A stretch of 64,000 nt of DNA from Gemmatimonadales bacterium (GTDB taxonomy: Bacteria > Gemmatimonadota > Gemmatimonadetes > Gemmatimonadales > GWC2-71-9): assembly GCA_035299765.1 (NCBI GenBank), contig DATGVZ010000095.1, forward strand, positions 22,066 through 86,065, given 5' to 3'. The notes beneath the pieces were generated by a model, which did no database searches, was not told the origin of the DNA, and worked only from the letters and a program-made list of their open reading frames with translations. Shown here in pieces: positions 1-39,564 of the stretch. Numbering within the stretch: position 1 is the stretch's first letter; each line of letters begins with the position of its first letter. A program made the position numbers and the translations under genes.

Positions 1-2056
1 CTCGGGGGAAACGCCGCACGCCCTCCTGGCACCAGCGCTGCGCCTGGCGCTGCTGGTCGAGGTCATATGAGGTGAAGAAGAGCCGACCCAGGATGTCCGC
101 GGCATTGGTGAGGTAGGCATCCTCTTCGTAAGCCCGCCGCGCCGCCAACGCCGCCCCCTGAAGATCCTTGGTCTGGTAATACAGGCTGCTGAGCGTGGCA
201 TAGGCGCTCGCGAGGGTAGGTTGCATGTTGGTCGCTCGCTCGAGGTCTTTCCGAGCGTCATCCAGCAGCGCCGCAGCCTGCTGCGGATTGGGCGGACGGG
301 CCAACTGCCACCGCCGATAGCGCAAGGTCCCTCGCAGCTCGATGGCACCGGGATCTTCAGTGGCGATGGCGAGTGCTCGCGCCGCGTGTGCGAGTCCTTC
401 GTCTATGAGAGCCGGGTTGCGCGTGAGCCGAACGCGACGTTCGACGAGCTGGCCTCGCAGCACGATCGGGTCGATCCACTTTGGATCGGCGCGCTCCGCC
501 GAAGCCAGCGTCGAATCGGTGCGGGCGAACAGCGCCATCGCGCTGTCCATCTTCCCCGCCTGCACGAGCGCTTCCCCATCCCTGCGAATCGCCTCGGCCT
601 GCTGCACGCGCGTCCATGCTTCGGTGCTTCTCGTCCCTGCGCGCTCTTCGCGCAGCCGCACCTCTTCACCGAGCCGCTCGCGCAACACGCGGGCGACTTC
701 GCCGGCGAGCGAATCGCGAATCTGAAGCAGATTCGCCGACGGCTGCTCGAAGGTCGCGCGCCGCAACAGATCCGCACCGCTGTAACCGTCCACGAGGCGT
801 ACCGTGACGCGCACCCGATCGCGTACCGGTTCCACCGTGCCCTCGACCAACGTCCCCGCGCCGAGTGCCCGCGCGATACTGTCGCGCGGGAGATCGACGT
901 TGCGATACGGCAGCACGCCGTTGCGCGACACGACGTCGAGAGAGCGGACCTGGGAGAGCTGATTGATCAGTCCTTCGGTGAGACCGGCGGCGAGAAAGCG
1001 CAGCGAGCTGTCGGGACTCTGGTCCTGAAAGTACAGCACGGCGACACGACGCACGTCCATGCCCGTACCGGATGGTCGGGCCGTGCCACGGCGACTGACG
1101 ACGAGCCAGGTGAGCGCTGCGAGGAGCAACAGGCCGCCGGCCACGGGGATGGGCCGGCGCCAGCGTAGACGCCCCGGCGGCGTCGGCCGTCGTCCCGCTG
1201 CAACCCTCGAGATCCTTCCGGTGCTGGCGGTCGTGAGTGCGTTGGAAAACTGCTCGGCCGTCTGATAGCGATCGGCCGGCACCTTCTCGAGGGCGCGCTC
1301 GATCACCGTCTCGAGTTCGTCGGGGATCGCCTCGCGTACGATTTTTAGCCTGGGCACCGAGTCCAACGAATGCCGTGCCATGATGGCTTGCGCGGTGGGG
1401 CCCGTGAACGGAGGCTGGCCTGCGAGTGTCTCGTACAGTACGCAGGCGAGACTATAGATGTCGCTGCGGCGATCGACCTGCCCTGTCCCAGCGGCTTGCT
1501 CGGGCGGCATGTAGGCGGGCGTGCCGATCGCGAGCCCCGTCTCCGTGAGTTTCTCGCCGCCCGCCGCGCTCACCGCCCGCGCGATCCCGAAGTCGGTGAC
1601 GATGGCATGGCCGCCGGACAGCATGATGTTCTCCGGCTTGATGTCGCGGTGCACAACGTCATGGCTGTGCGCATACGACAGCGCGTCGGCCACCTCGCGC
1701 GCGATTTGGAGGGCGTCATCGAGCGGCAGTTGCGGCTCGCGCTCCAGCCGCTCGCGTAGGGATTCGCCTTCCACGAACGGCATGACGTAGAAGAGGAGGC
1801 CGTCCGCCGCACCTGAGTCGTAAACCGGAAGAATGTTGGGATGTTGCAGGCGGGCGGCGAGCTTGATCTCCCGCAGGAAACGCTCACGGCCGAGCGCCAT
1901 CGCGATCTCTGGGCGCAGCGTTTTGAGGGCCACGAAACGCTCATGGCGCACGTCGCGCGCGAGATAGACGAGCGCCATCCCGCCCCGACCCAGCTCTCTA
2001 TCGATGATGTAGTGGCCGGCGAGTGCCGCGTTCAATTCTGCAAACGGATCGGTCAC
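1..2056 (-). CDS. Ser/Thr protein kinase with TM helix, extracytoplasmic module and TPR-like C-terminus (C-terminus runs off the left edge)
   Basis: Absent from the ORF track because it has no stop in the window. My reverse-strand translation from GTG (2056-2054) reads VTDPFAELNAALAGHYIIDRELGRGGMALVYLARD..VHRDIKPENIMLS..DFGIARA..GTPAYMPPEQ. A hydrophobic span LRWRRPIPVAGGLLLLAALTWLVV follows, then TPR-like sequence in frame to base 1. Confidence 0.85.
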   Translation of the reverse strand, partial: MTDPFAELNAALAGHYIIDRELGRGGMALVYLARDVRHERFVALKTLRPEIAMALGRERFLREIKLAARLQHPNILPVYDSGAADGLLFYVMPFVEGESLRERLEREPQLPLDDALQIAREVADALSYAHSHDVVHRDIKPENIMLSGGHAIVTDFGIARAVSAAGGEKLTETGLAIGTPAYMPPEQAAGTGQVDRRSDIYSLACVLYETLAGQPPFTGPTAQAIMARHSLDSVPRLKIVREAIPDELETVIERALEKVPADRYQTAEQFSNALTTASTGRISRVAAGRRPTPPGRLRWRRPIPVAGGLLLLAALTWLVVSRRGTARPSGTGMDVRRVAVLYFQDQSPDSSLRFLAAGLTEGLINQLSQVRSLDVVSRNGVLPYRNVDLPRDSIARALGAGTLVEGTVEPVRDRVRVTVRLVDGYSGADLLRRATFEQPSANLLQIRDSLAGEVARVLRERLGEEVRLREERAGTRSTEAWTRVQQAEAIRRDGEALVQAGKMDSAMALFARTDSTLASAERADPKWIDPIVLRGQLVERRVRLTRNPALIDEGLAHAARALAIATEDPGAIELRGTLRYRRWQLARPPNPQQAAALLDDARKDLERATNMQPTLASAYATLSSLYYQTKDLQGAALAARRAYEEDAYLTNAADILGRLFFTSYDLDQQRQAQRWCQEGVRRFPR

Positions 2057-2094
2057 GACAAATAACGTACGGCGGGGACCTCGCCGAGGCTATA

Positions 2095-2571
2095 TCAGCG
2101 CACGCGTTGCGCGAGCGCGCGCGGCAGATTCTCGAGATCGGCGATCGGCCAAGGGCCGTCGAACACGAGCTGCACGCGGCCCGTGCCGGCGTCGATGACG
2201 ATCGTCTGCACGCGGACAGAATCGCGCGCTTCCGCCATGGGATCGAGGCGACCGTAGACTGCGCGAGTGGCGCTGGTGCTTCGCGCAAGGTCGAGGGCAG
2301 CGATTTCGGGACGCGCCTGAGCGTGCCACCGCTCCCGCACGACGTCCTGCGACACGGCGGCGAGCGGCGCGCTGATAGCGGCGGTGAGGCCGACCGCGAG
2401 ACGCACGCGCCACCGCTCGAGACCCGGGACGAAGATGTCGAATGGCGCGACGGCGACGAGTCGTGGGTCGGGCGCGTGGCTGCGTGTGTAGCGCACGAAG
2501 CTGATCGCGCCGGCGATCATCAGGAGCGCGATCATCGTGGACATCGCGATCAAAAGCCGTCGGTTGGTCAT
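2095..2571 (-). CDS. membrane-anchored hypothetical protein resembling the kinase extracytoplasmic module
   Basis: 158-aa ORF with an N-terminal TM helix (LLIAMSTMIALLMIAGAISFV). It lies 38 nt upstream of the kinase on the same strand. Confidence 0.6.
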   Translation of the reverse strand: MTNRRLLIAMSTMIALLMIAGAISFVRYTRSHAPDPRLVAVAPFDIFVPGLERWRVRLAVGLTAAISAPLAAVSQDVVRERWHAQARPEIAALDLARSTSATRAVYGRLDPMAEARDSVRVQTIVIDAGTGRVQLVFDGPWPIADLENLPRALAQRVR

Positions 2572-2634
2572 TGGCGTCCCGTCAGAGGCGCGGGTAGGTT
2601 CGCACCCAGCCTATTCGATCACAAGGAGTCGCGC

Positions 2635-4413
2635 ATGTCCCTGCGTACGGCGTTCCGTTCCCTGCTGGCCATGACTCTTTCCTGCCCGGTTCCCGTTCTT
2701 GCGCAGCAGCCAGTGGCTCCCCCGGACAGCGTCCGCCTGCACCAGCTCATCGCCCAGAACTGGGCATACACGATGCACGAGTATCCCGAGTACGCGACGG
2801 CGGTGGGATATCCAGGGCAAAACGCGCGCTGGACCGATTACTCGGTCGAGGCGATCGCCCGGCGCAAGCGGGAGCTGAACGATCCGCTGACGGCGCTGCG
2901 AGCTATCGACCGAAATAAGCTTGGCTCCACCGATCAACTCAACTACGATCTCTTCGCCCGCAACGCCACCGATGCGCTCGATGAAACTCGCTTCCCCGGC
3001 GAGTTGATGCCCGTCACCCAGCTTGACGGCGTGCAGCAGGACGTGCCGCGCATTTTCGCGCAGATGCCGAGCGGCACCGTGCGGGAAGATGAGGACATCA
3101 TCGCGCGGCTGCGCGCCGTGCCCGTACTCGTGAACCAAACGATCACGCTGCTCGAGCGCGGGCTCGCCAGCGGAGTCACGCCTCCGCAGATCACGTTGCG
3201 CGACGTGCCGGCGCAGGCGCAAAGCCTCGTGGTCGCAGACCCGCTGACCAGTCCGATGCTCGCAGCGTTCGTGCACTTCCCGGCCGAGATCGGTAGTGCC
3301 GATCAACAGCGCCTGCGCGCGGCCGCTGTGGCCGCCTATCGTGATTCCGTCGCGCCGGCGTTTCAGAAGCTGAGCGCCTTCCTGCGCGACAAGTACGTCC
3401 CCGGTGCGCGTAGGACCATCGGCATGCGCGATCTTCCCAACGGGCTCGATTGGTATCGCGTTCGGGCGCGCGCGAGCACGACGACCGATCTCACCCCTGA
3501 GCAGATTCACGCCCTGGGGCTCGCGGAGGTGAAACGCATCCGCGGCCTGATGGACAGTGTGATTGCAGCGACTGGCTTCAAGGGCACGTTCGCGGACTTC
3601 GCGCAGTTTTTGCGCACCGATCCGCGGTTTTTCTTCACGACGCGTGAGGATCTGCTCCGTGCATCACGCGATCTCGCGAAACGGATTGACCCGGAGCTCG
3701 TGCGTCTGTTCGGCACTCTGCCCCGCCTGACGTACGGCGTGAGCCCGGTTCCCCCGTATGCGGAGCGCTCGCAAACGACGGCGTACTATCAGGGCGGCAG
3801 TCCTGAGGCGCATCGCGCCGGCACCTATTTCGTCAACACCTACAATCTCCCCGCGCGTCCCAAGTGGGAGATGGAGGCGCTGACGCTGCATGAGGCGGTG
3901 CCGGGGCATCACCTCCAGATCTCGTTGGCTGAGGAGCTACAGGGAGTGCCGGAGTTCCGGCGGTACGGTGGCTACACGGCGTTCATCGAGGGTTGGGGAC
4001 TCTACAGCGAGAGTCTCGGCGACGAGCTCGGTCTCTACAAAGATGCGTACAGCAAATTCGGGCAACTCACCTACGAGATGTGGCGTGCCATCCGCCTCGT
4101 CCTCGACACCGGCATCCATACGATGGGGTGGACGCGCGAGCAGGCCATCGACTACTTCAAGGCCAATGCCGGGAAGGCGGAGCATGACATCACCGTGGAA
4201 GTCGATCGTTACATCGTGTGGCCGGGCCAGGCACTGGCCTACAAGATCGGCGAGCTGAAGATCAAAGAGCTGCGCTCGTACGCGTCATCGACGCTCGGCA
4301 GCAAATTCGATATTCGCGCGTTCCACGATCAGGTGCTCGGCGCGGGGGCGTTGCCGCTGGACGCGCTCGACGCGCGGATTCACGCGTGGGTCGCGTCGGT
4401 GCAGGCGCGGTGA
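2635..4413 (+). CDS. DUF885 family protein (secreted, zincin-like HExxH-containing)
   Basis: Part of ORF 2023..4413. The internal start MSLRTAFRSLLAMTLSCPVPVLAQQ looks like a signal peptide. It has the HEAVPGHH motif and a DUF885-like length and sequence. The upstream part of the ORF overlaps the opposite-strand gene. Confidence 0.85.
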   Translation: MSLRTAFRSLLAMTLSCPVPVLAQQPVAPPDSVRLHQLIAQNWAYTMHEYPEYATAVGYPGQNARWTDYSVEAIARRKRELNDPLTALRAIDRNKLGSTDQLNYDLFARNATDALDETRFPGELMPVTQLDGVQQDVPRIFAQMPSGTVREDEDIIARLRAVPVLVNQTITLLERGLASGVTPPQITLRDVPAQAQSLVVADPLTSPMLAAFVHFPAEIGSADQQRLRAAAVAAYRDSVAPAFQKLSAFLRDKYVPGARRTIGMRDLPNGLDWYRVRARASTTTDLTPEQIHALGLAEVKRIRGLMDSVIAATGFKGTFADFAQFLRTDPRFFFTTREDLLRASRDLAKRIDPELVRLFGTLPRLTYGVSPVPPYAERSQTTAYYQGGSPEAHRAGTYFVNTYNLPARPKWEMEALTLHEAVPGHHLQISLAEELQGVPEFRRYGGYTAFIEGWGLYSESLGDELGLYKDAYSKFGQLTYEMWRAIRLVLDTGIHTMGWTREQAIDYFKANAGKAEHDITVEVDRYIVWPGQALAYKIGELKIKELRSYASSTLGSKFDIRAFHDQVLGAGALPLDALDARIHAWVASVQAR

Positions 4414-4449
4414 ACGAGGTTTGATAGCCGGGCGTTAGCGTGACGCTGC

Positions 4450-5313
4450 ATGGTCACCGTCTGCACTGTTCTTCCCGCGACCGAACGCTCGCGCATCGAC
4501 GCCGCGGGCGACGGCTGCTTTCATACACTGCACGCCGAATCGCTGCGTGAAGCCCTCCACGTAGCCCGGCGCCGGCGCGTCGACGCCGTCGTGATTTCGG
4601 TGCATCGCTGCCACGGCGAGGCGCTCCCCGCGGTCGCGCGGTTCGTACGTGAATTTCCCACGATCCCCGCCGTCGCGCTGGTCTCGCGCCACGACCGCGA
4701 ATCCACCGAGACACTGTTGCGGCTCGGCGCCACGGGCGTCCGAACCGCTGTTGATTGTACCGAGCCCGACGGATGGCGGCGATTGCGGGACCTCGTTGGT
4801 CATCCGGCGTCGCCGGTTGCCACGCGGATCCTCGCACGGCTGGTCCCTGCCCTCGGCGAGCCATCCGAAGAGGCGCGGCTCTTCTTCGAAGCGATCGCGC
4901 GGCTCGCGCCGGCGCTCAGCACCGTCCGTGGTCTGGCCCGACATCTCCGAGTACGACCGAGCACGTTGATGTCGCGCTTTCATCGAGCGTCAATTCCGTC
5001 ACCCAAGAGTTACCTCGCGGGCATGCGTCTGCTGCACGCCTCCTTTCTGTTTCAGAATCCGGGGTTGTCGGTCTCGGACGTCGCGTATCGGATGGACTAC
5101 TCGTCACCCCAGAGCTTTGGGCGACACCTCCGCGCCGTGCTGGGCGTGACCGCGGGGGAATTTCGCCGCCGCTTTCCTTTTGATGTCGCGCTGGCGCGCT
5201 ACATCGACCTGCTCATCACCCCGTACCGGGAGGCCCTGCGCGCGTTTCACCCCTTCAACGCGGGGTCGTGGGACCAAGGCCCGAACGCCACAGCGGTCTT
5301 CCGGGCGGGGTGA
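4450..5313 (+). CDS. AraC-family transcriptional regulator with receiver-like N-terminal domain
   Basis: The C-terminus has an AraC-type HTH (SVSDVAYRMDYSSPQSFGRHLRAVLGVTAGEFRR). The N-terminal ~120 aa show an alternating beta/alpha pattern like a receiver domain. Confidence 0.8.
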   Translation: MVTVCTVLPATERSRIDAAGDGCFHTLHAESLREALHVARRRRVDAVVISVHRCHGEALPAVARFVREFPTIPAVALVSRHDRESTETLLRLGATGVRTAVDCTEPDGWRRLRDLVGHPASPVATRILARLVPALGEPSEEARLFFEAIARLAPALSTVRGLARHLRVRPSTLMSRFHRASIPSPKSYLAGMRLLHASFLFQNPGLSVSDVAYRMDYSSPQSFGRHLRAVLGVTAGEFRRRFPFDVALARYIDLLITPYREALRAFHPFNAGSWDQGPNATAVFRAG

Positions 5314-26189: not shown

Positions 26190-28275
<2,086 letters not shown>

Positions 28276-35824: not shown

Positions 35825-37073
35825 AGTCTGGGCCGTCATCCGGCGCGAATTCGTGGAGCGCGTGCGCACCAGGTGGTTTTGGATCTCGGCGATCCTGGGA
35901 CCGGTCCTGTTCGGTGGCGTCATCGTCTACCAGATCATGCAGTCCGTGGGCGGCGGAGTGCGGGATATCGCCGTCGTAGACAGCACGACCTCGGCGTTTG
36001 GGCAGCGGGTCACCGAGGCGTTGGCGGCGAGCCCAAACTTCCGGGTGACGCGTGTGCCTGCCGGTCCGCGTGTCGTCGATTCCCTGACTCGTCTCGTGGA
36101 ATCCAAGCAGTTGAACGGTTTCCTGATCATTTCGAATGATCTGACTGAGACCGGCAAGGCCGAATACCGAGCTTCGAACTTGTCACTTCAGACGGTTGAA
36201 GGGCTGGAGCGGGCACTCAACAAGGTGGCCGTGAAGGTGAGGCTCGAGACAAGAGGCGTAAATCCCGCCGTCGTTGATTGGGCGCAGGGAATCAGGATTA
36301 CGCTCGACCAGACGAAGATCGCGCGGGGGCGAACGACCAAGGAGAGTGCGGGGGAGTCGTTCGTCCTCGCGTATGTCATGGCCGTGCTGCTGTTCATGGC
36401 GATCCTGCTGTATGGTGTGAACGTCATGAGCTCGGTGCTGGAGGAGAAAACCACACGGATTGTCGAGGTGCTCGTATCGTCACTGCGGCCGTTTCAATTG
36501 ATGCTTGGGAAAGTCGCCGGGGCGGGCGCGGTGTCCTTCTTCCAGTTCCTCATCTGGGGCGTCTCCGCGCGACTGCTTATCAGCCTGCGCGTACCCATTG
36601 CCCGTGCCCTGGGCGCGGATGCTTCTGCGGCAGCAGGCATGAAGCTGCCGCATATCCCCTTTGCGACGCTCGCTGTGTTCATGGCGTTCTTCCTCGGCGG
36701 GTTCCTCCTCTACTCGGCGATGTTCGCGGCGGTCGGCGCGATGTCCAGCAATGAGCAGGAGGCGCGCCAGGCGCAGCAGCCCGTGACCTACTTGCTGATG
36801 ATCTCGTATTTCTCGATCATCGGACTCACGAACGATCCGAGCTCGACGTTCTCGCGAACGCTGTCGATTGTGCCCTTTACGTCACCGATCGCGACGCCAG
36901 TCCGCTGGACGGCGGGCAGTATGGGAGCCGGCGAATTGGGAGCATCGCTGGCGATGCTGCTGATTGGGATTGTGGCGATTACATGGATCGCCGCGAGGAT
37001 TTATCGAGTGGGGATACTGATGACGGGGAAACGGCCGACCATGAAGGAACTCGTTAGGTGGGTCAGGGCCTGA
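35817..37073 (+). CDS. ABC-2 family transporter permease
   Basis: In-frame GTG (35817) or TTG (35808) start within ORF 35541..37073. It has one N-terminal TM, a large loop and a C-terminal multi-TM bundle. Confidence 0.8.
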   Translation: MHKVWAVIRREFVERVRTRWFWISAILGPVLFGGVIVYQIMQSVGGGVRDIAVVDSTTSAFGQRVTEALAASPNFRVTRVPAGPRVVDSLTRLVESKQLNGFLIISNDLTETGKAEYRASNLSLQTVEGLERALNKVAVKVRLETRGVNPAVVDWAQGIRITLDQTKIARGRTTKESAGESFVLAYVMAVLLFMAILLYGVNVMSSVLEEKTTRIVEVLVSSLRPFQLMLGKVAGAGAVSFFQFLIWGVSARLLISLRVPIARALGADASAAAGMKLPHIPFATLAVFMAFFLGGFLLYSAMFAAVGAMSSNEQEARQAQQPVTYLLMISYFSIIGLTNDPSSTFSRTLSIVPFTSPIATPVRWTAGSMGAGELGASLAMLLIGIVAITWIAARIYRVGILMTGKRPTMKELVRWVRA

Positions 37074-37082
37074 CAACCCCGG

Positions 37083-37130
37083 AGGACATGCAAAGGCTAG
37101 GCTACAGACGCACCGCGGGCTTGAGTAAAC
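37083..37130. repeat. left arm of a long imperfect inverted repeat flanking the four-helix-bundle gene
   Basis: ggacatgcaaaggctaggctacagacgcaccgcgg..taaac pairs with the reverse complement of 37571-37612. Confidence 0.7.
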
Positions 37131-37190
37131 GGGATACGGGATGAGATAAAATGATTCGATGATTCTGCGGTCGCTGCTTATCCTCCTGAC

Positions 37191-37568
37191 GTGCCGAATC
37201 ATCACACATTAAAGGCGTGGCAACATGCCGAGAGGCTTGCCGTCGAATGCTCGAAGGCGGCCCAGCGGTTTCCTGACTTCGAGCAAGAGCGACTGGCCGA
37301 TCAGCTTCGCAGGGCCTCCTATAGCGTCCCGCTGAACATCGCCGAAGGTTCGACACGCAAAGGCACCAGAGACTATCGAAAGTTTCTCGACACCGCGTGG
37401 GGATCACTCGCCGAAGTACAGACGGCGCTCACCATGGCGCGCGACATCGGCTACCTGCGGCCAGCCGAGTATGGACGGCTTGAAGCGCTGGCAACCGAGA
37501 CAAGCAAGACGCTGTTTGGGTTGCTTCGGAAGATTAGCCAGACGGCAGATCGTCCCAAAACCCGTTGA
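37191..37568 (+). CDS. four-helix-bundle protein (23S rRNA intervening-sequence protein family)
   Basis: LKAWQHAERLAVE..FPDFEQERLADQLRRASYSVPLNIAEGSTRKGTRDYRKFLDTAWGSLAEVQT matches the family signature (..QlrRAa.Sv..NIAEG..r....f..fl..A.GSl.E..t). Confidence 0.9.
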   Translation: MPNHHTLKAWQHAERLAVECSKAAQRFPDFEQERLADQLRRASYSVPLNIAEGSTRKGTRDYRKFLDTAWGSLAEVQTALTMARDIGYLRPAEYGRLEALATETSKTLFGLLRKISQTADRPKTR

Positions 37569-37570
37569 CT

Positions 37571-37612
37571 GTTTACCGCGGTTGCGTCTGTACGTCTAGC
37601 CTTTGCAGGTCC
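37571..37612. repeat. right arm of the inverted repeat
   Basis: The reverse complement reads ggacctgcaaaggctagacgtacagacgcaaccgcggtaaac. Confidence 0.7.
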
Positions 37613-37633
37613 TAGCTAAGTAGTTTCTCCCGC

Positions 37634-39508
37634 ATGTCTTTCGACTGTGACGTTATCGTCGTTGGTGGTGGCCACGCCGGAACGGAGGCTGCTGCCATCT
37701 CCGCGCGGCTCTCCGCCCGCACGTTGCTGCTTACCTCCAACCTCGAAACGATTGGCCAGATGTCCTGCAATCCCGCTATCGGCGGGATCGCGAAGGGTAC
37801 CGTGGTCCGCGAAGTCGACGCCCTTGGCGGCCTGATGGGCCGCGCCGCCGATCGCGCCACGATCCAATTCCGCATGCTGAATCGCTCGAAGGGCCCCGCT
37901 GTGTGGGCTCCGCGCGCTCAGTGCGATCGCACGCTCTATCGCCGCGCCGTCCGCCACCTGCTCGAGCAATTCCCTCTTCTCGAGCTCACGCAAGGCATGG
38001 TCACAAATCTGCTCTTCGACGACCGCGGCACGCGGATCACCGGAGTCGAGACGAGCGACGGCCGTCGCTTCAGCGCTCGCGCTGTCATCATCACCGCCGG
38101 GACGTTCCTCCGTGGCCGCATTCACCTCGGCACTGATACGCAGATTCCTGCTGGGCGCGCCGGTGATCCGCCCTCGGTCCAGATGGCGCAAGTCATTGAG
38201 AACATTGGGCTTACAGTCGCGCGCTTCAAGACCGGAACGCCGCCGCGAGTGGATGGCCGATCGGTCGATTGGGACAAAGTCGAGCGCCAGGATGGAGACG
38301 GCGACGAATTTCGTTTCTCATTCCACGAGCGCGTTGAGCGGCCCCGTCAACTTCCATGCTGGATTACGTGGGCCGGCGCAGAGGTAAAGGAAATCATCCA
38401 GCAGCACCTGAAGGAGTCGGCACTCTACGGCGGCGCGATCAGCGGACGGGGCCCGCGCTATTGCCCGTCCGTCGAGGACAAGATCGTGAAGTTCCCGGCC
38501 GCTCCCCGGCATCAGATTTTTCTCGAGCCGGAGGGTCTCGACACGACCGAGCTGTACGTCAATGGGCTCTCCACTTCCCTGCCGGTCGCGGTCCAGCTCG
38601 AGTTTCTGCACGCGGTCCCCGGTCTCGAGCACGCGAAGATGACTCGACCCGGGTATGCGATCGAATACGACTACTATCCGCCGACGCAGCTCACGCCGTG
38701 GCTCGAGGTAAAGGCCGTCGAGCATCTGTTCTTTGCGGGGCAGATAAACGGCACGACCGGCTACGAAGAGGCTGCCGGCCAGGGTGTCGTCGCCGGCATC
38801 AATGCGGTGCGCCGGATCCGGGGGGCCGAGCCGGTGGTGCTCGGTCGCGACGACGCGTACATCGGGGTTCTCGTCGACGATCTCGTGACCCGTGGAGTCG
38901 ATGAGCCCTACCGCTTGTTCACGTCGCGCTCCGAGTTTCGGCTGCTGCTGCGCCAGGACAACGCCCTGCGTCGGCTGCTCCCGCTCGCAGAGCGACTCGG
39001 CCTGTTGAGCGACGTCGAGCTGCGGGCGGCAGAGCGGCGTCTGGAGACTGAAGTCTCGATTATGGAATTGGCTCGAGAGAGATCGATTACGCCCGAGCAG
39101 GCCTCGGAGGCGCTGGCCGCAACCGGAGCGACGTTGAAGGAACCGGAGCGGATCGCTACCGTGGCGAAGCGTCCCGGTGTGGCACTCGGTGCATTGCTCG
39201 CCGCCGTCGGAGCGGCCGGCGCTGTGCCTCCAGAGGCCGTGCTCGCCGCGGAGATCGAGATCAAGTACGACGGCTATCTCGCGCGTGAGCGCGATGCCGC
39301 GCAGCGACTGGCGGAGTTGGCATCGTTCGCGCTCCCAACTGACCTGCCCTACCTCGAACTGCGGACGCTAGCGACGGAGGCACGCCAGAAGCTCGATCGC
39401 GTGCGACCCACCTCGCTGGCGCAGGCCGCCCGGGTGCCTGGCGTGACACCGAGCGACCTTCACAACCTGGTTCTTGAGACGACGCGCTGGCGCCGACGGG
39501 TGGCGTAA
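37634..39508 (+). CDS. mnmG: tRNA uridine 5-carboxymethylaminomethyl modification enzyme MnmG (GidA)
   Basis: FDCDVIVVGGGHAGTEAA, GQMSCNPAIGG and full-length GidA similarity. Confidence 0.95.
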   Translation: MSFDCDVIVVGGGHAGTEAAAISARLSARTLLLTSNLETIGQMSCNPAIGGIAKGTVVREVDALGGLMGRAADRATIQFRMLNRSKGPAVWAPRAQCDRTLYRRAVRHLLEQFPLLELTQGMVTNLLFDDRGTRITGVETSDGRRFSARAVIITAGTFLRGRIHLGTDTQIPAGRAGDPPSVQMAQVIENIGLTVARFKTGTPPRVDGRSVDWDKVERQDGDGDEFRFSFHERVERPRQLPCWITWAGAEVKEIIQQHLKESALYGGAISGRGPRYCPSVEDKIVKFPAAPRHQIFLEPEGLDTTELYVNGLSTSLPVAVQLEFLHAVPGLEHAKMTRPGYAIEYDYYPPTQLTPWLEVKAVEHLFFAGQINGTTGYEEAAGQGVVAGINAVRRIRGAEPVVLGRDDAYIGVLVDDLVTRGVDEPYRLFTSRSEFRLLLRQDNALRRLLPLAERLGLLSDVELRAAERRLETEVSIMELARERSITPEQASEALAATGATLKEPERIATVAKRPGVALGALLAAVGAAGAVPPEAVLAAEIEIKYDGYLARERDAAQRLAELASFALPTDLPYLELRTLATEARQKLDRVRPTSLAQAARVPGVTPSDLHNLVLETTRWRRRVA

Positions 39509-39522
39509 ACCTGGAATGTTGC

Positions 39523-39538
39523 TGTTTCACGTGAAACT
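39523..39538. promoter_or_regulatory. parS site 1
   Basis: tgtttcacgtgaaact against the consensus TGTTNCACGTGAAACA. Confidence 0.85.
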
Positions 39539-39548
39539 TAGGCTCTTT

Positions 39549-39564
39549 CGTTTCACGTGAAACG
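39549..39564. promoter_or_regulatory. parS site 2
   Basis: cgtttcacgtgaaacg, a perfect palindrome sharing the 14-nt core gtttcacgtgaaac with site 1. Confidence 0.85.

Follow-up and report, generated by a model that had tools for sequence, protein, structure and literature searches.

The stretch of DNA considered here, 64,000 nucleotides of a Gemmatimonadales bacterium (GCA_035299765.1, contig DATGVZ010000095.1) and referred to below as the window, carries a small gene of the PF05635 family in the spacer between the gene for an ABC-2 permease and mnmG, and this gene is enclosed by a long inverted repeat. The feature is an intervening sequence (IVS)-type cassette at a junction between protein genes. 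Our preferred reading, held with moderate confidence, is that it is a resident cassette of this kind outside rRNA, lying in the sense direction at an operon junction, with arms that would pair for processing by RNase III. This is of wider interest in that PF05635, which is named after a few rRNA intervening sequences, is a large family with no known role outside diversity-generating retroelements (DGRs), and the same build - two inverted arms of short tandem units, an open reading frame (ORF) in the loop, sense orientation in the host transcription unit - is typical of the family outside rRNA.

An earlier note on this DNA had described arms that differ by two substitutions and two single-base indels, and gapped alignment bears this out: set against the reverse complement of 37576-37613, the left arm (37083-37118) shows exactly these differences in 38 columns. 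The coordinates given there for the right arm and for a further taaac/gttta pair also stand, but the start of the left arm is one base off for the letters quoted: the A at 37083 pairs with the T at 37613, and the left string ggacatgc...ccgcgg begins at 37084. A repeat search returns the ungapped outer part of the repeat as 18 nt at 94%. The inverted repeat scores 50, whereas 1,461 random window positions put to the same test have a median of 19 and none exceeds 29. The RNA fold of 37070-37630 is closed by the arm stem (minimum free energy (MFE) -241.6 kcal/mol; z = -6.85; 0 of 100 shuffles equal), so that the terminal stem which the note expected to enclose the ORF is indeed predicted. The inverted repeat and its stem are real and non-random. 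GC-rich genomes are rich in short inverted matches, nine of which occur in this 1.1-kb stretch, and one could propose an ordinary small gene with a chance palindrome in its flanks; this is scarcely credible, however, with a score so far above the control maximum, a repeat that is kept with covariation across some 95 loci, and an architecture that is family-wide. The parts of the locus are as follows.

37074..37082, plus strand: spacer of 9 nt from the permease stop to the left arm
37083..37118, plus strand: left (upstream) arm of the inverted repeat, AGGACATGCAAAGGCTAGGCTACAGACGCACCGCGG
37119..37190, plus strand: 5' leader from the left arm to the start codon, which holds the conserved block 37123-37145
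37123-37145, plus strand: conserved leader block, GAGTAAACGGGATACGGGATGAG, with a GGTAC-like core
37126..37130, plus strand: inner left-arm extension TAAAC, which pairs with 37571-37575 (GTTTA)
37191..37568, plus strand: PF05635/TIGR02436 four-helix-bundle gene, 125 aa
37571..37613, plus strand: right (downstream) arm including the inner GTTTA, GTTTACCGCGGTTGCGTCTGTACGTCTAGCCTTTGCAGGTCCT, beginning 2 nt past the stop codon
37614..37633, plus strand: spacer of 20 nt from the right arm to the mnmG start, with a conserved GTAGTTTCTC at 37620-37629

Comparison with related loci indicates that this arrangement is old. Close relatives of the protein number in the hundreds, in soil metagenomes and Gemmatimonadales metagenome-assembled genomes (MAGs), and 535 stretches carrying them were confirmed. 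We examined about 95 orthologous loci (L001-L091 and L168-L173), every one of which was retrieved via the gene itself. The order in nearly all of them is ABC ATPase, ABC-2 permease, gene, mnmG, parA, parB, with SufS/NifU-like genes also among the neighbours, and placement at the permease-mnmG junction holds at 60-99% protein identity. A clear inverted repeat is present in nearly all lineages; it is kept at the same place and has changed on both arms. An alignment of 23 distinct arm pairs (A1) gives a consensus stem of 32 pairs in which 94.6% of cells are paired, and eight of the 32 pairs have changed on both sides. The covariation score, 0.113, is reached by none of 500 shuffles (0.086 shuffled) and compares with 0.013-0.055 when partners are slid. 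The TAAAC extension forms helix 3 of the consensus structure, with three pairs, one of them doubly changed. In a set of relatives that we call B-type, the inner stem CCGCGG...GTAAAC has been swapped for CAGGGGAGAACAGG / CCTGTTCTCCCCTG with complementarity retained. Sequence as such is also conserved: no sequence in A1 departs from GTAG at the 3' end, the GGTAC core of the leader recurs in all lineages, and the columns of the leader block are invariant or nearly so in A1. In L080 (gene 237-593) and L085 (gene 1916-2281), the AGACGC core that is otherwise typical of the arms is gone, and a weak gapped inverted match GCTAG...CGCGYACGC is left.

Both gene and arms are under constraint. The ORF is intact in all 81 of 81 orthologous cassettes. 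Purifying selection on the gene is strong: measured against the window gene, the ratio of nonsynonymous to synonymous substitution (dN/dS) has a median of 0.037, and synonymous sites are in many cases saturated. For these same sequences, the arms average 85% pairwise identity and the leader 78%, as compared with 55% for spacer sequence beyond the arms and 48% for third codon positions. Since the identity of the arms lies so far above that of third codon positions, the arms are functional elements, constrained in sequence beyond complementarity. The core motif of the arms has a fixed polarity: on the gene strand, AGACGC stands solely upstream and GCGTCT solely downstream of the gene in the orthologous spacers, and all 125 occurrences of the doubled core motif lie within 260 nt of the gene, with none in 342 kb of other DNA from the same loci.

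That the spacer holds a 125-aa four-helix-bundle gene, as the earlier note had it, is borne out by profile matches. The ORF, which begins with GTG and ends with TGA, matches PF05635 across 104 of 106 profile positions (E 2e-30; 105.5 bits, where the cut-off is 33.8) and TIGR02436, 'four helix bundle protein' (E 6e-28; 97.3 bits against a cut-off of 24). The family motif R-x3-S-x3-N-x2-E is represented by R41, S45, N49 and E52, and the leading G of the published motif (PMC3936711) by Q38; in an alignment of 35 family sequences, S45, N49, E52 and G53 fall in columns with little or no variation. The nearest solved structure is 2GSC (E 4e-17, at modest identity), which is XCC0516 of Xanthomonas campestris, the structural archetype of the family: a four-helix bundle assembled into a five-membered ring (PMC4990558), sharing the family motif with the window protein and without a known function. 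Similarity to 2GSC thus predicts a four-helix-bundle fold and a ring-shaped oligomer for the window protein. There is a further, weak match to PHROG 3206, 'Avd protein of DGR' (E 1e-5). Avd belongs to the same superfamily and is likewise a small helical-bundle oligomer, one that acts on its element's own RNA (PMC10053308). Unlike Avd, the window gene and its orthologues have neither a reverse transcriptase nor a template/variable repeat pair beside them: direct repeats of that type were not found around the gene, and no reverse transcriptase, transposase or recombinase stands beside the cassette in the window or in the neighbourhoods of the orthologous loci. PADLOC returned no defence-system match.

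Both neighbours are on the plus strand, as the earlier note had it; the permease stop codon is at 37071-37073 and mnmG starts at 37634. No Shine-Dalgarno sequence is evident in the leader (37119-37190), and no promoter or terminator consensus was found in 36900-37800. The spacer at 37614-37633 is too short for a promoter, so transcription of mnmG would have to run through or from the cassette, and we infer that transcripts read through it. Rfam detects no rRNA in the window, and at neither gathering nor relaxed thresholds does any Rfam family cover the cassette.

The closest known parallels are the ORF-bearing IVSs of 23S rRNA genes, which lie at helix 25 or 45, and it is with these that the window feature shares its layout. 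That such elements combine terminal inverted repeats with a PF05635 ORF, and the idea that they were once mobile, are already known (PMC4990558). In Coxiella the IVS, closed by a terminal stem of 28 bp, is cut out by RNase III; it contains GACAGAT heptamers in variable number, and its ORF is reportedly decaying and probably untranslated (PMC4990558); stem cleavage by RNase III is also cited there for Leptospira, Salmonella and alphaproteobacteria. Like the window cassette, the ORF-bearing IVSs of Coxiella burnetii, Leptospira, Brucella, Xanthomonas and Azospirillum lipoferum are about 430-530 nt long, with an arm stem of about 28-40 bp that encloses a PF05635 ORF sense to the host transcript. 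They carry short tandem units, variable in number, in the arms or 5' part, as sister lineages of the window cassette do in their arms. Four differences are apparent. The window cassette lies between two protein-coding genes and not in rRNA; the units of its clade are about 8 nt long and degenerate rather than clean heptamers; its ORF, unlike that of Coxiella, is under strong purifying selection; and excision by RNase III, demonstrated for the rRNA elements, is here a prediction from shared layout.

A true rRNA element could be compared directly. A tblastn search of plasmids gave 22 records, among them L095 (Azospirillum lipoferum AZO_p2), in which a PF05635 homologue lies inside a 23S rRNA gene (Rfam LSU, 1274-4472), at a point which, by E. 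coli numbering, we take to be helix 45. Arms of 36 nt, made up of about 4.5 heptamers (GAGGACG/GATGACA), stand on either side of its ORF, in the same layout as the window cassette, which upholds the earlier note's likening of the window feature to an rRNA IVS. The same build is found in plasmid copies that are not in rRNA: one from Gemmatirosa, with GGGCAGGA-type units and 43-nt arms that are 88% complementary, and one from Leptolyngbya. In another plasmid copy, from Anabaena sp. 90 (L093, pANA02), the family gene (2495-2863) is wedged into a type I-D operon, with cas6 on one side and cas4 on the other. Where members of the family stand in cas operons, they have been read as Cas-associated '23S_rRNA_IVP' genes with a functional tie to Cas nucleases (PMC3936711; PMC10910872). 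As in the window, the gene stands between co-directional genes of an operon, and it is flanked by inverted AGGTGAC heptamer arrays (2154-2414 and 2935-2973), which allows a simpler reading, namely that a cassette has been inserted into the transcription unit. The downstream array overlaps the annotated cas4 start (2908). Members of the family also occur in rRNA insertions of the candidate phyla radiation (CPR).

How general this architecture is was examined in a broader sample. PF05635 comprises about 13,700 clusters at 50% identity; from it we took 72 loci by scanning one genome per species with a single query protein typical of the family, P0246, which is 36% identical to the window protein, across Acidobacteriota, Myxococcota, Chloroflexota, Planctomycetota, Thermoanaerobaculia, Cyanobacteria and Bacteroidota. 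A flanking inverted repeat scoring above every shuffle is present in 48 of the 70 testable loci, and a widened search, allowing for an extra ORF inside the pair, adds five more (53/70), whereas 414 control positions from these loci yield none. Inverted repeats thus flank most of the family members sampled from other phyla, which speaks for the earlier note's reading. The IVS architecture spans at least six phyla in this sample, in addition to the cyanobacterial and Gemmatimonadota plasmids, and none of the 70 loci lies in a 23S gene; about a quarter have no repeat, mostly in GC-rich Proteobacteria, Myxococcota and Planctomycetota. Arrays of period 7, as called by Tandem Repeats Finder, occur upstream in 54 and downstream in 57 of the 70 loci, with median unit numbers of 5.2 and 4.4 respectively and a mode near 4.3. 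Relative to co-directional neighbours the gene is sense in 45 loci and antisense in 8, strand calls that follow the longest ORF and are approximate. In the literature that we searched, we found no description of inverted arms made of tandem units as a common PF05635 architecture outside rRNA. The shared build suggests that these genes travel and act as self-contained cassettes.

Some of these loci carry signs of dispersal. L160 and L161, from one genome, are 90.6% identical over 523 bp that comprise the arms and ORF only, in unrelated contexts, and the pairs L155/L159, L157/L163 and L155/L162 are 85-88% identical over 420-450 bp, again in unrelated contexts; homology restricted to the cassette in this way indicates that the unit disperses. 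In both L160 (2880-2886) and L161 (2863-2869) the cassette begins directly at the CAGTAA stop context of the upstream gene, and there may be a preferred insertion point at gene ends. Several loci also contain inverted heptamer pairs that enclose an extra ORF (L101 2312-2929, 205 aa; L102 3391-3636, 81 aa; L127 3465-3767, 100 aa; also L111 and L161), those of L101 and L102 at a shared host site between a peptidase and an aminotransferase gene. An arm pair can, then, hold additional cargo.

Such observations raise the possibility that the arms are the terminal inverted repeats (TIRs) of a now immobile transposon, or of a unit resembling a miniature inverted-repeat transposable element (MITE) and mobilised in trans, with the gene as cargo or mobility factor. 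A mobile origin of IVSs has long been proposed (Ralph and McClelland 1993, as cited in PMC4990558), and both the cassette-only homologies and the enclosed extra ORFs would be expected on this account. We nevertheless consider it improbable for the window cassette. Like MITEs, the cassette is a short segment bounded by inverted repeats, but it occupies one site in about 95 loci, and its tree fits vertical residence plus exchange through crossovers in the flanking genes. Arms and gene are each single-copy within the window, and the 342 kb examined from related loci show no second copy; no target-site duplication is visible at 37078-37082 / 37614-37618, and no transposase, recombinase or reverse transcriptase adjoins the cassette, nor are there multiple copies in the lineage. 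Decaying TIRs, moreover, would not stay 85% identical while synonymous sites saturate. The cassette in Gemmatimonadota is an old, vertically inherited and syntenic resident and has not been recently mobile; the earlier note's suggestion of possible mobility is therefore upheld for dispersal within the family but not for recent movement in this lineage.

Residence at one site has not meant stasis. In most orthologous loci the gene shares the strand of both neighbours, but one clade (L060 and others) has it antisense to the permease gene and mnmG, in 13 loci, and so does a distant clade (L168-L171). That the two are separate events, and hence that orientation has changed at least twice, follows from the identity matrix; the L060 clade is monophyletic in the gene tree, and orientation is fixed within clades. 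L073 (inverted) and L079 (direct) make an instructive comparison: for 2.4 kb to either side their flanks are 97% identical, and the segment that the arms enclose aligns in reverse orientation at only 78% identity, with breakpoints inside the arms. Raised divergence reaches some 150-200 nt into both flanking genes, at the end of the permease gene and at the start of mnmG. The pairs L065/L047, L060/L046, L068/L054 and L075/L077 are alike, and across all pairs the flanks are 87-97% identical and the opposite-orientation cassettes 70-78%. A simple flip in situ in near-identical hosts was considered and rejected, given the 22% difference between cassettes and the spill of divergence into the flanks. 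In a tree of mnmG protein sequences the cassette types are interleaved. Homologous recombination has made this junction a hotspot of allele replacement. Over its history the cassette has long resided at a single site, has turned round between its arms at least twice, and has repeatedly been replaced by other alleles via homologous recombination in the flanks. This accords with the earlier note's description of a self-contained cassette: inversion has taken place precisely from arm to arm on two or more occasions, and alleles have been swapped between hosts with 97% identical flanks. Since the gene is intact in the inverted lineages too, the cassette probably has a promoter of its own.

The existence of both orientations at the same junction, with the inverted segment bounded by the arms and at least two independent changes, could also be taken to indicate that the repeat is the recombination site of a reversible switch (an inverton) controlling expression of the gene or of mnmG. 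We regard this as very unlikely. Invertons share with the cassette a short segment bounded by inverted repeats and found in either orientation, but here orientation is clade-fixed, the L060 group being monophyletic, and no invertase gene lies nearby. Opposite cassettes in hosts with 97% identical flanks differ by 22%, and so are distinct alleles and not flips of one sequence, and the rest of the family favours one orientation by 45 to 8.

A more substantial alternative concerns the internal structure of the arms. The left arm of the window resembles a degenerate array of units of about 8 nt with core AGACGC, and parses as AAGGCT-AGGCTAC-AGACGCAC-CGCGG. The tandem character is more evident in sister lineages, whose left arms contain two to seven tandem AGACGCAN / AGACGGNN units and which have two to nine AGACGC/GCGTCT cores per side, the counts varying between loci and between arms. 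One such tandem reads AGACGCAC-AGACGCAG-CAGACGCAC; larger units of about 33 nt are present in up to four copies in L075, and AGACGGNN octamers in three to four copies in L170 and L172. These features raise the possibility that the arms are primarily inverted arrays of putative binding sites for a sequence-specific factor, most likely the encoded and presumably pentameric protein, serving autoregulation or the packaging or handling of cassette RNA. The target could be DNA or single-stranded RNA, complementarity would then be a by-product of the shared unit, and RNA processing would remain compatible with this account.

Several observations are in line with binding sites. The units are tandem, with period 7 in most of the family and about 8 nt (AGACGGNN / AGACGCAN) in the window's subfamily, and 2GSC has five chains, the protein being described as a homopentameric toroid (PMC4990558). 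Arm sequence is conserved beyond pairing where synonymous sites saturate, and arm mismatches lack a G-U bias (below). Unit type follows protein clade across phyla: GTCGA-type units accompany P0246-like proteins in Acidobacteriota, Myxococcota, Chloroflexota, Planctomycetota and Thermoanaerobaculia, and AGGCAA-type units accompany the cyanobacterial protein clade. The DGR relative Avd is an accessory protein that handles nucleic acid. Finally, XCC0516 itself starts with a four-unit GGGAATC array, which lies over the gene start at 622956-622983 of the Xanthomonas campestris genome, on the side towards bccP (PMC4692102 supplement).

Against this, each window arm carries only one clear AGACGC core, autocorrelation shows no periodicity in the arms, and no period-7 array was found in the window. 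Tracking of protein clade by unit type would be equally expected if whole cassettes are inherited or transferred together. Period-7 arrays of other unit types are, in addition, common in the sampled loci away from any adjacent PF05635 gene, at 3.6 per 10 kb as compared with 10 per 10 kb near the gene. We regard recognition arrays, taken as the primary explanation of the arms, as a possibility to be entertained tentatively.

Our preferred reading remains the IVS-type cassette with pairing arms, for which the support lies in the IVS layout, the tight insertion at the junction, the preference of the family for sense orientation, and the presence of the stem in both orientations. Under this model, read-through from the permease gene into mnmG would carry both arms, which could then pair into a duplex of at least 32 bp around the ORF. 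RNase III may cut this duplex, as has been demonstrated for rRNA IVSs, thereby freeing the cassette RNA and parting the upstream from the downstream host messages. We propose that release by RNase III is what makes an insertion tolerable inside a transcription unit, in either orientation. The encoded protein, strongly conserved and functional, is probably expressed from the cassette's own leader, and the arms are probably recognised as well, most plausibly by the encoded ring-forming protein. Processing by RNase III is, on this analysis, the most likely role of arm pairing.

Several findings weigh against so simple a model. If pairing in RNA were all that selection maintained, mismatches in the arms might be expected to favour G-U-compatible over A-C combinations on the sense strand, but the counts are 118 against 138 in the Gemmatimonadota clade and 60 against 55 in the wider family (p = 0.71), and transversions are common among the mismatches. 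As G-U-compatible changes are not in excess, the counts do not demonstrate that selection acts on RNA pairing alone. Within A1 there is a mild G-U bias (about 31 G-U against 18 A-C cells). Counts taken from MFE structures were discarded, as folding favours G-U pairs and extends into coding sequence, and duplex folding of long flanks is uninformative for the same reasons. The tandem units and invariant sequence exceed what a plain stem needs, and in the L080/L085 lineage the ORF is intact, at about 75-80% identity, despite a largely decayed repeat, so that the gene can apparently outlive its repeat. Where the cassette is inverted, the gene runs against the host operon and is intact all the same, which implies expression independent of read-through. 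The family-wide evidence, for its part, stems from one query protein and draft MAGs, with neighbour strands assigned by a crude longest-ORF rule. Because a G-U bias is lacking and the arms are conserved at the sequence level, they are probably more than a plain RNA stem and also serve as recognition sites. Recognition of the units by the encoded protein would be a compatible, if speculative, second layer on top of RNase III processing.

What might this mean for the family as a whole? One generalisation, which we put forward as possible but doubtful, is that PF05635 genes in general form the coding core of a widespread and unrecognised class of self-contained cassettes, bounded by inverted arrays of short tandem units, with an excisable stem and with TRAP-like recognition of the units by the protein. 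If this were so, cassettes of the class would be inserted in rRNA, cas, restriction and housekeeping transcription units and tolerated there by virtue of the excisable arm stem, and the ring protein would recognise some 4-5 of its own tandem units and thereby control processing or spread. The 23S rRNA IVSs would then be one special case, and ORF-less IVSs, together with the intergenic heptamer arrays of cyanobacteria, Xanthomonas and Acidobacteria, would be non-autonomous relatives. Cas-associated IVP genes, heptamer arrays and rRNA IVSs with or without ORFs may thus be a single kind of element. For an examination of such ideas the Gemmatimonadota copy is a good model, being single-copy, an ancient resident by mnmG and parAB, under strong selection, and available in both orientations and in several arm variants.

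Some candidates for non-autonomous relatives are at hand. The ORF-less 23S IVSs of Salmonella, Campylobacter and others and the convergent GGGAATC pairs of Xanthomonas (PMC4692102) have, like the cassette, inverted arms capable of forming a stem or cruciform within DNA that is transcribed or intergenic, but unlike it they have no gene between the arms. The X. campestris genome contains 186 GGGAATC arrays, 70 of them in convergent pairs (PMC4692102 supplement). Published descriptions of heptamer arrays in Xanthomonas, Nostoc, Beggiatoaceae and others draw no link to PF05635, yet co-occurrence, including the array at XCC0516, suggests a link between heptamer repeats and proteins of this family. 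In cyanobacteria, short tandemly repeated repetitive (STRR) heptamer arrays are abundant and intergenic. ORF-less inverted heptamer pairs also occur in PF05635-bearing loci: L104 carries one at about 793-880, roughly 2.2 kb upstream of the gene, in which GTCGAGA (3.9 copies) and TCTCGAC (4.4 copies) start about 43 nt apart and so nearly abut, and which looks like a mini version of the cassette. Elsewhere in the sample, L133 has three ACGCTCG arrays at 63-nt spacing and L164 a TAACTGA array.

A few further features of the window and its relatives deserve mention. In L009 (GCA_009772795.1, 4710-6338) mnmG is called at 542 aa, with a start some 270 nt later than in near-identical relatives, which probably reflects a frameshift or assembly error just downstream of the cassette. 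In the window itself, two near-consensus parS sites, TGTTTCACGTGAAACT at 39523-39538 and CGTTTCACGTGAAACG at 39549-39564, lie in the mnmG-parA spacer, where about 0.06 would be expected by chance; both fall within a 26-nt tandem at 39507-39563, and the pair marks an origin-proximal partition region. We considered and rejected the notion that the cassette arms are themselves parS, as these two canonical sites stand elsewhere (39523-39564), and likewise the reading of the locus as an origin, as GC skew does not switch there. The sole Rfam family in the window is a thiamine pyrophosphate (TPP) riboswitch aptamer (RF00059) on the minus strand at 28173-28274, which scores 58.8 bits against a gathering score of 54.3.

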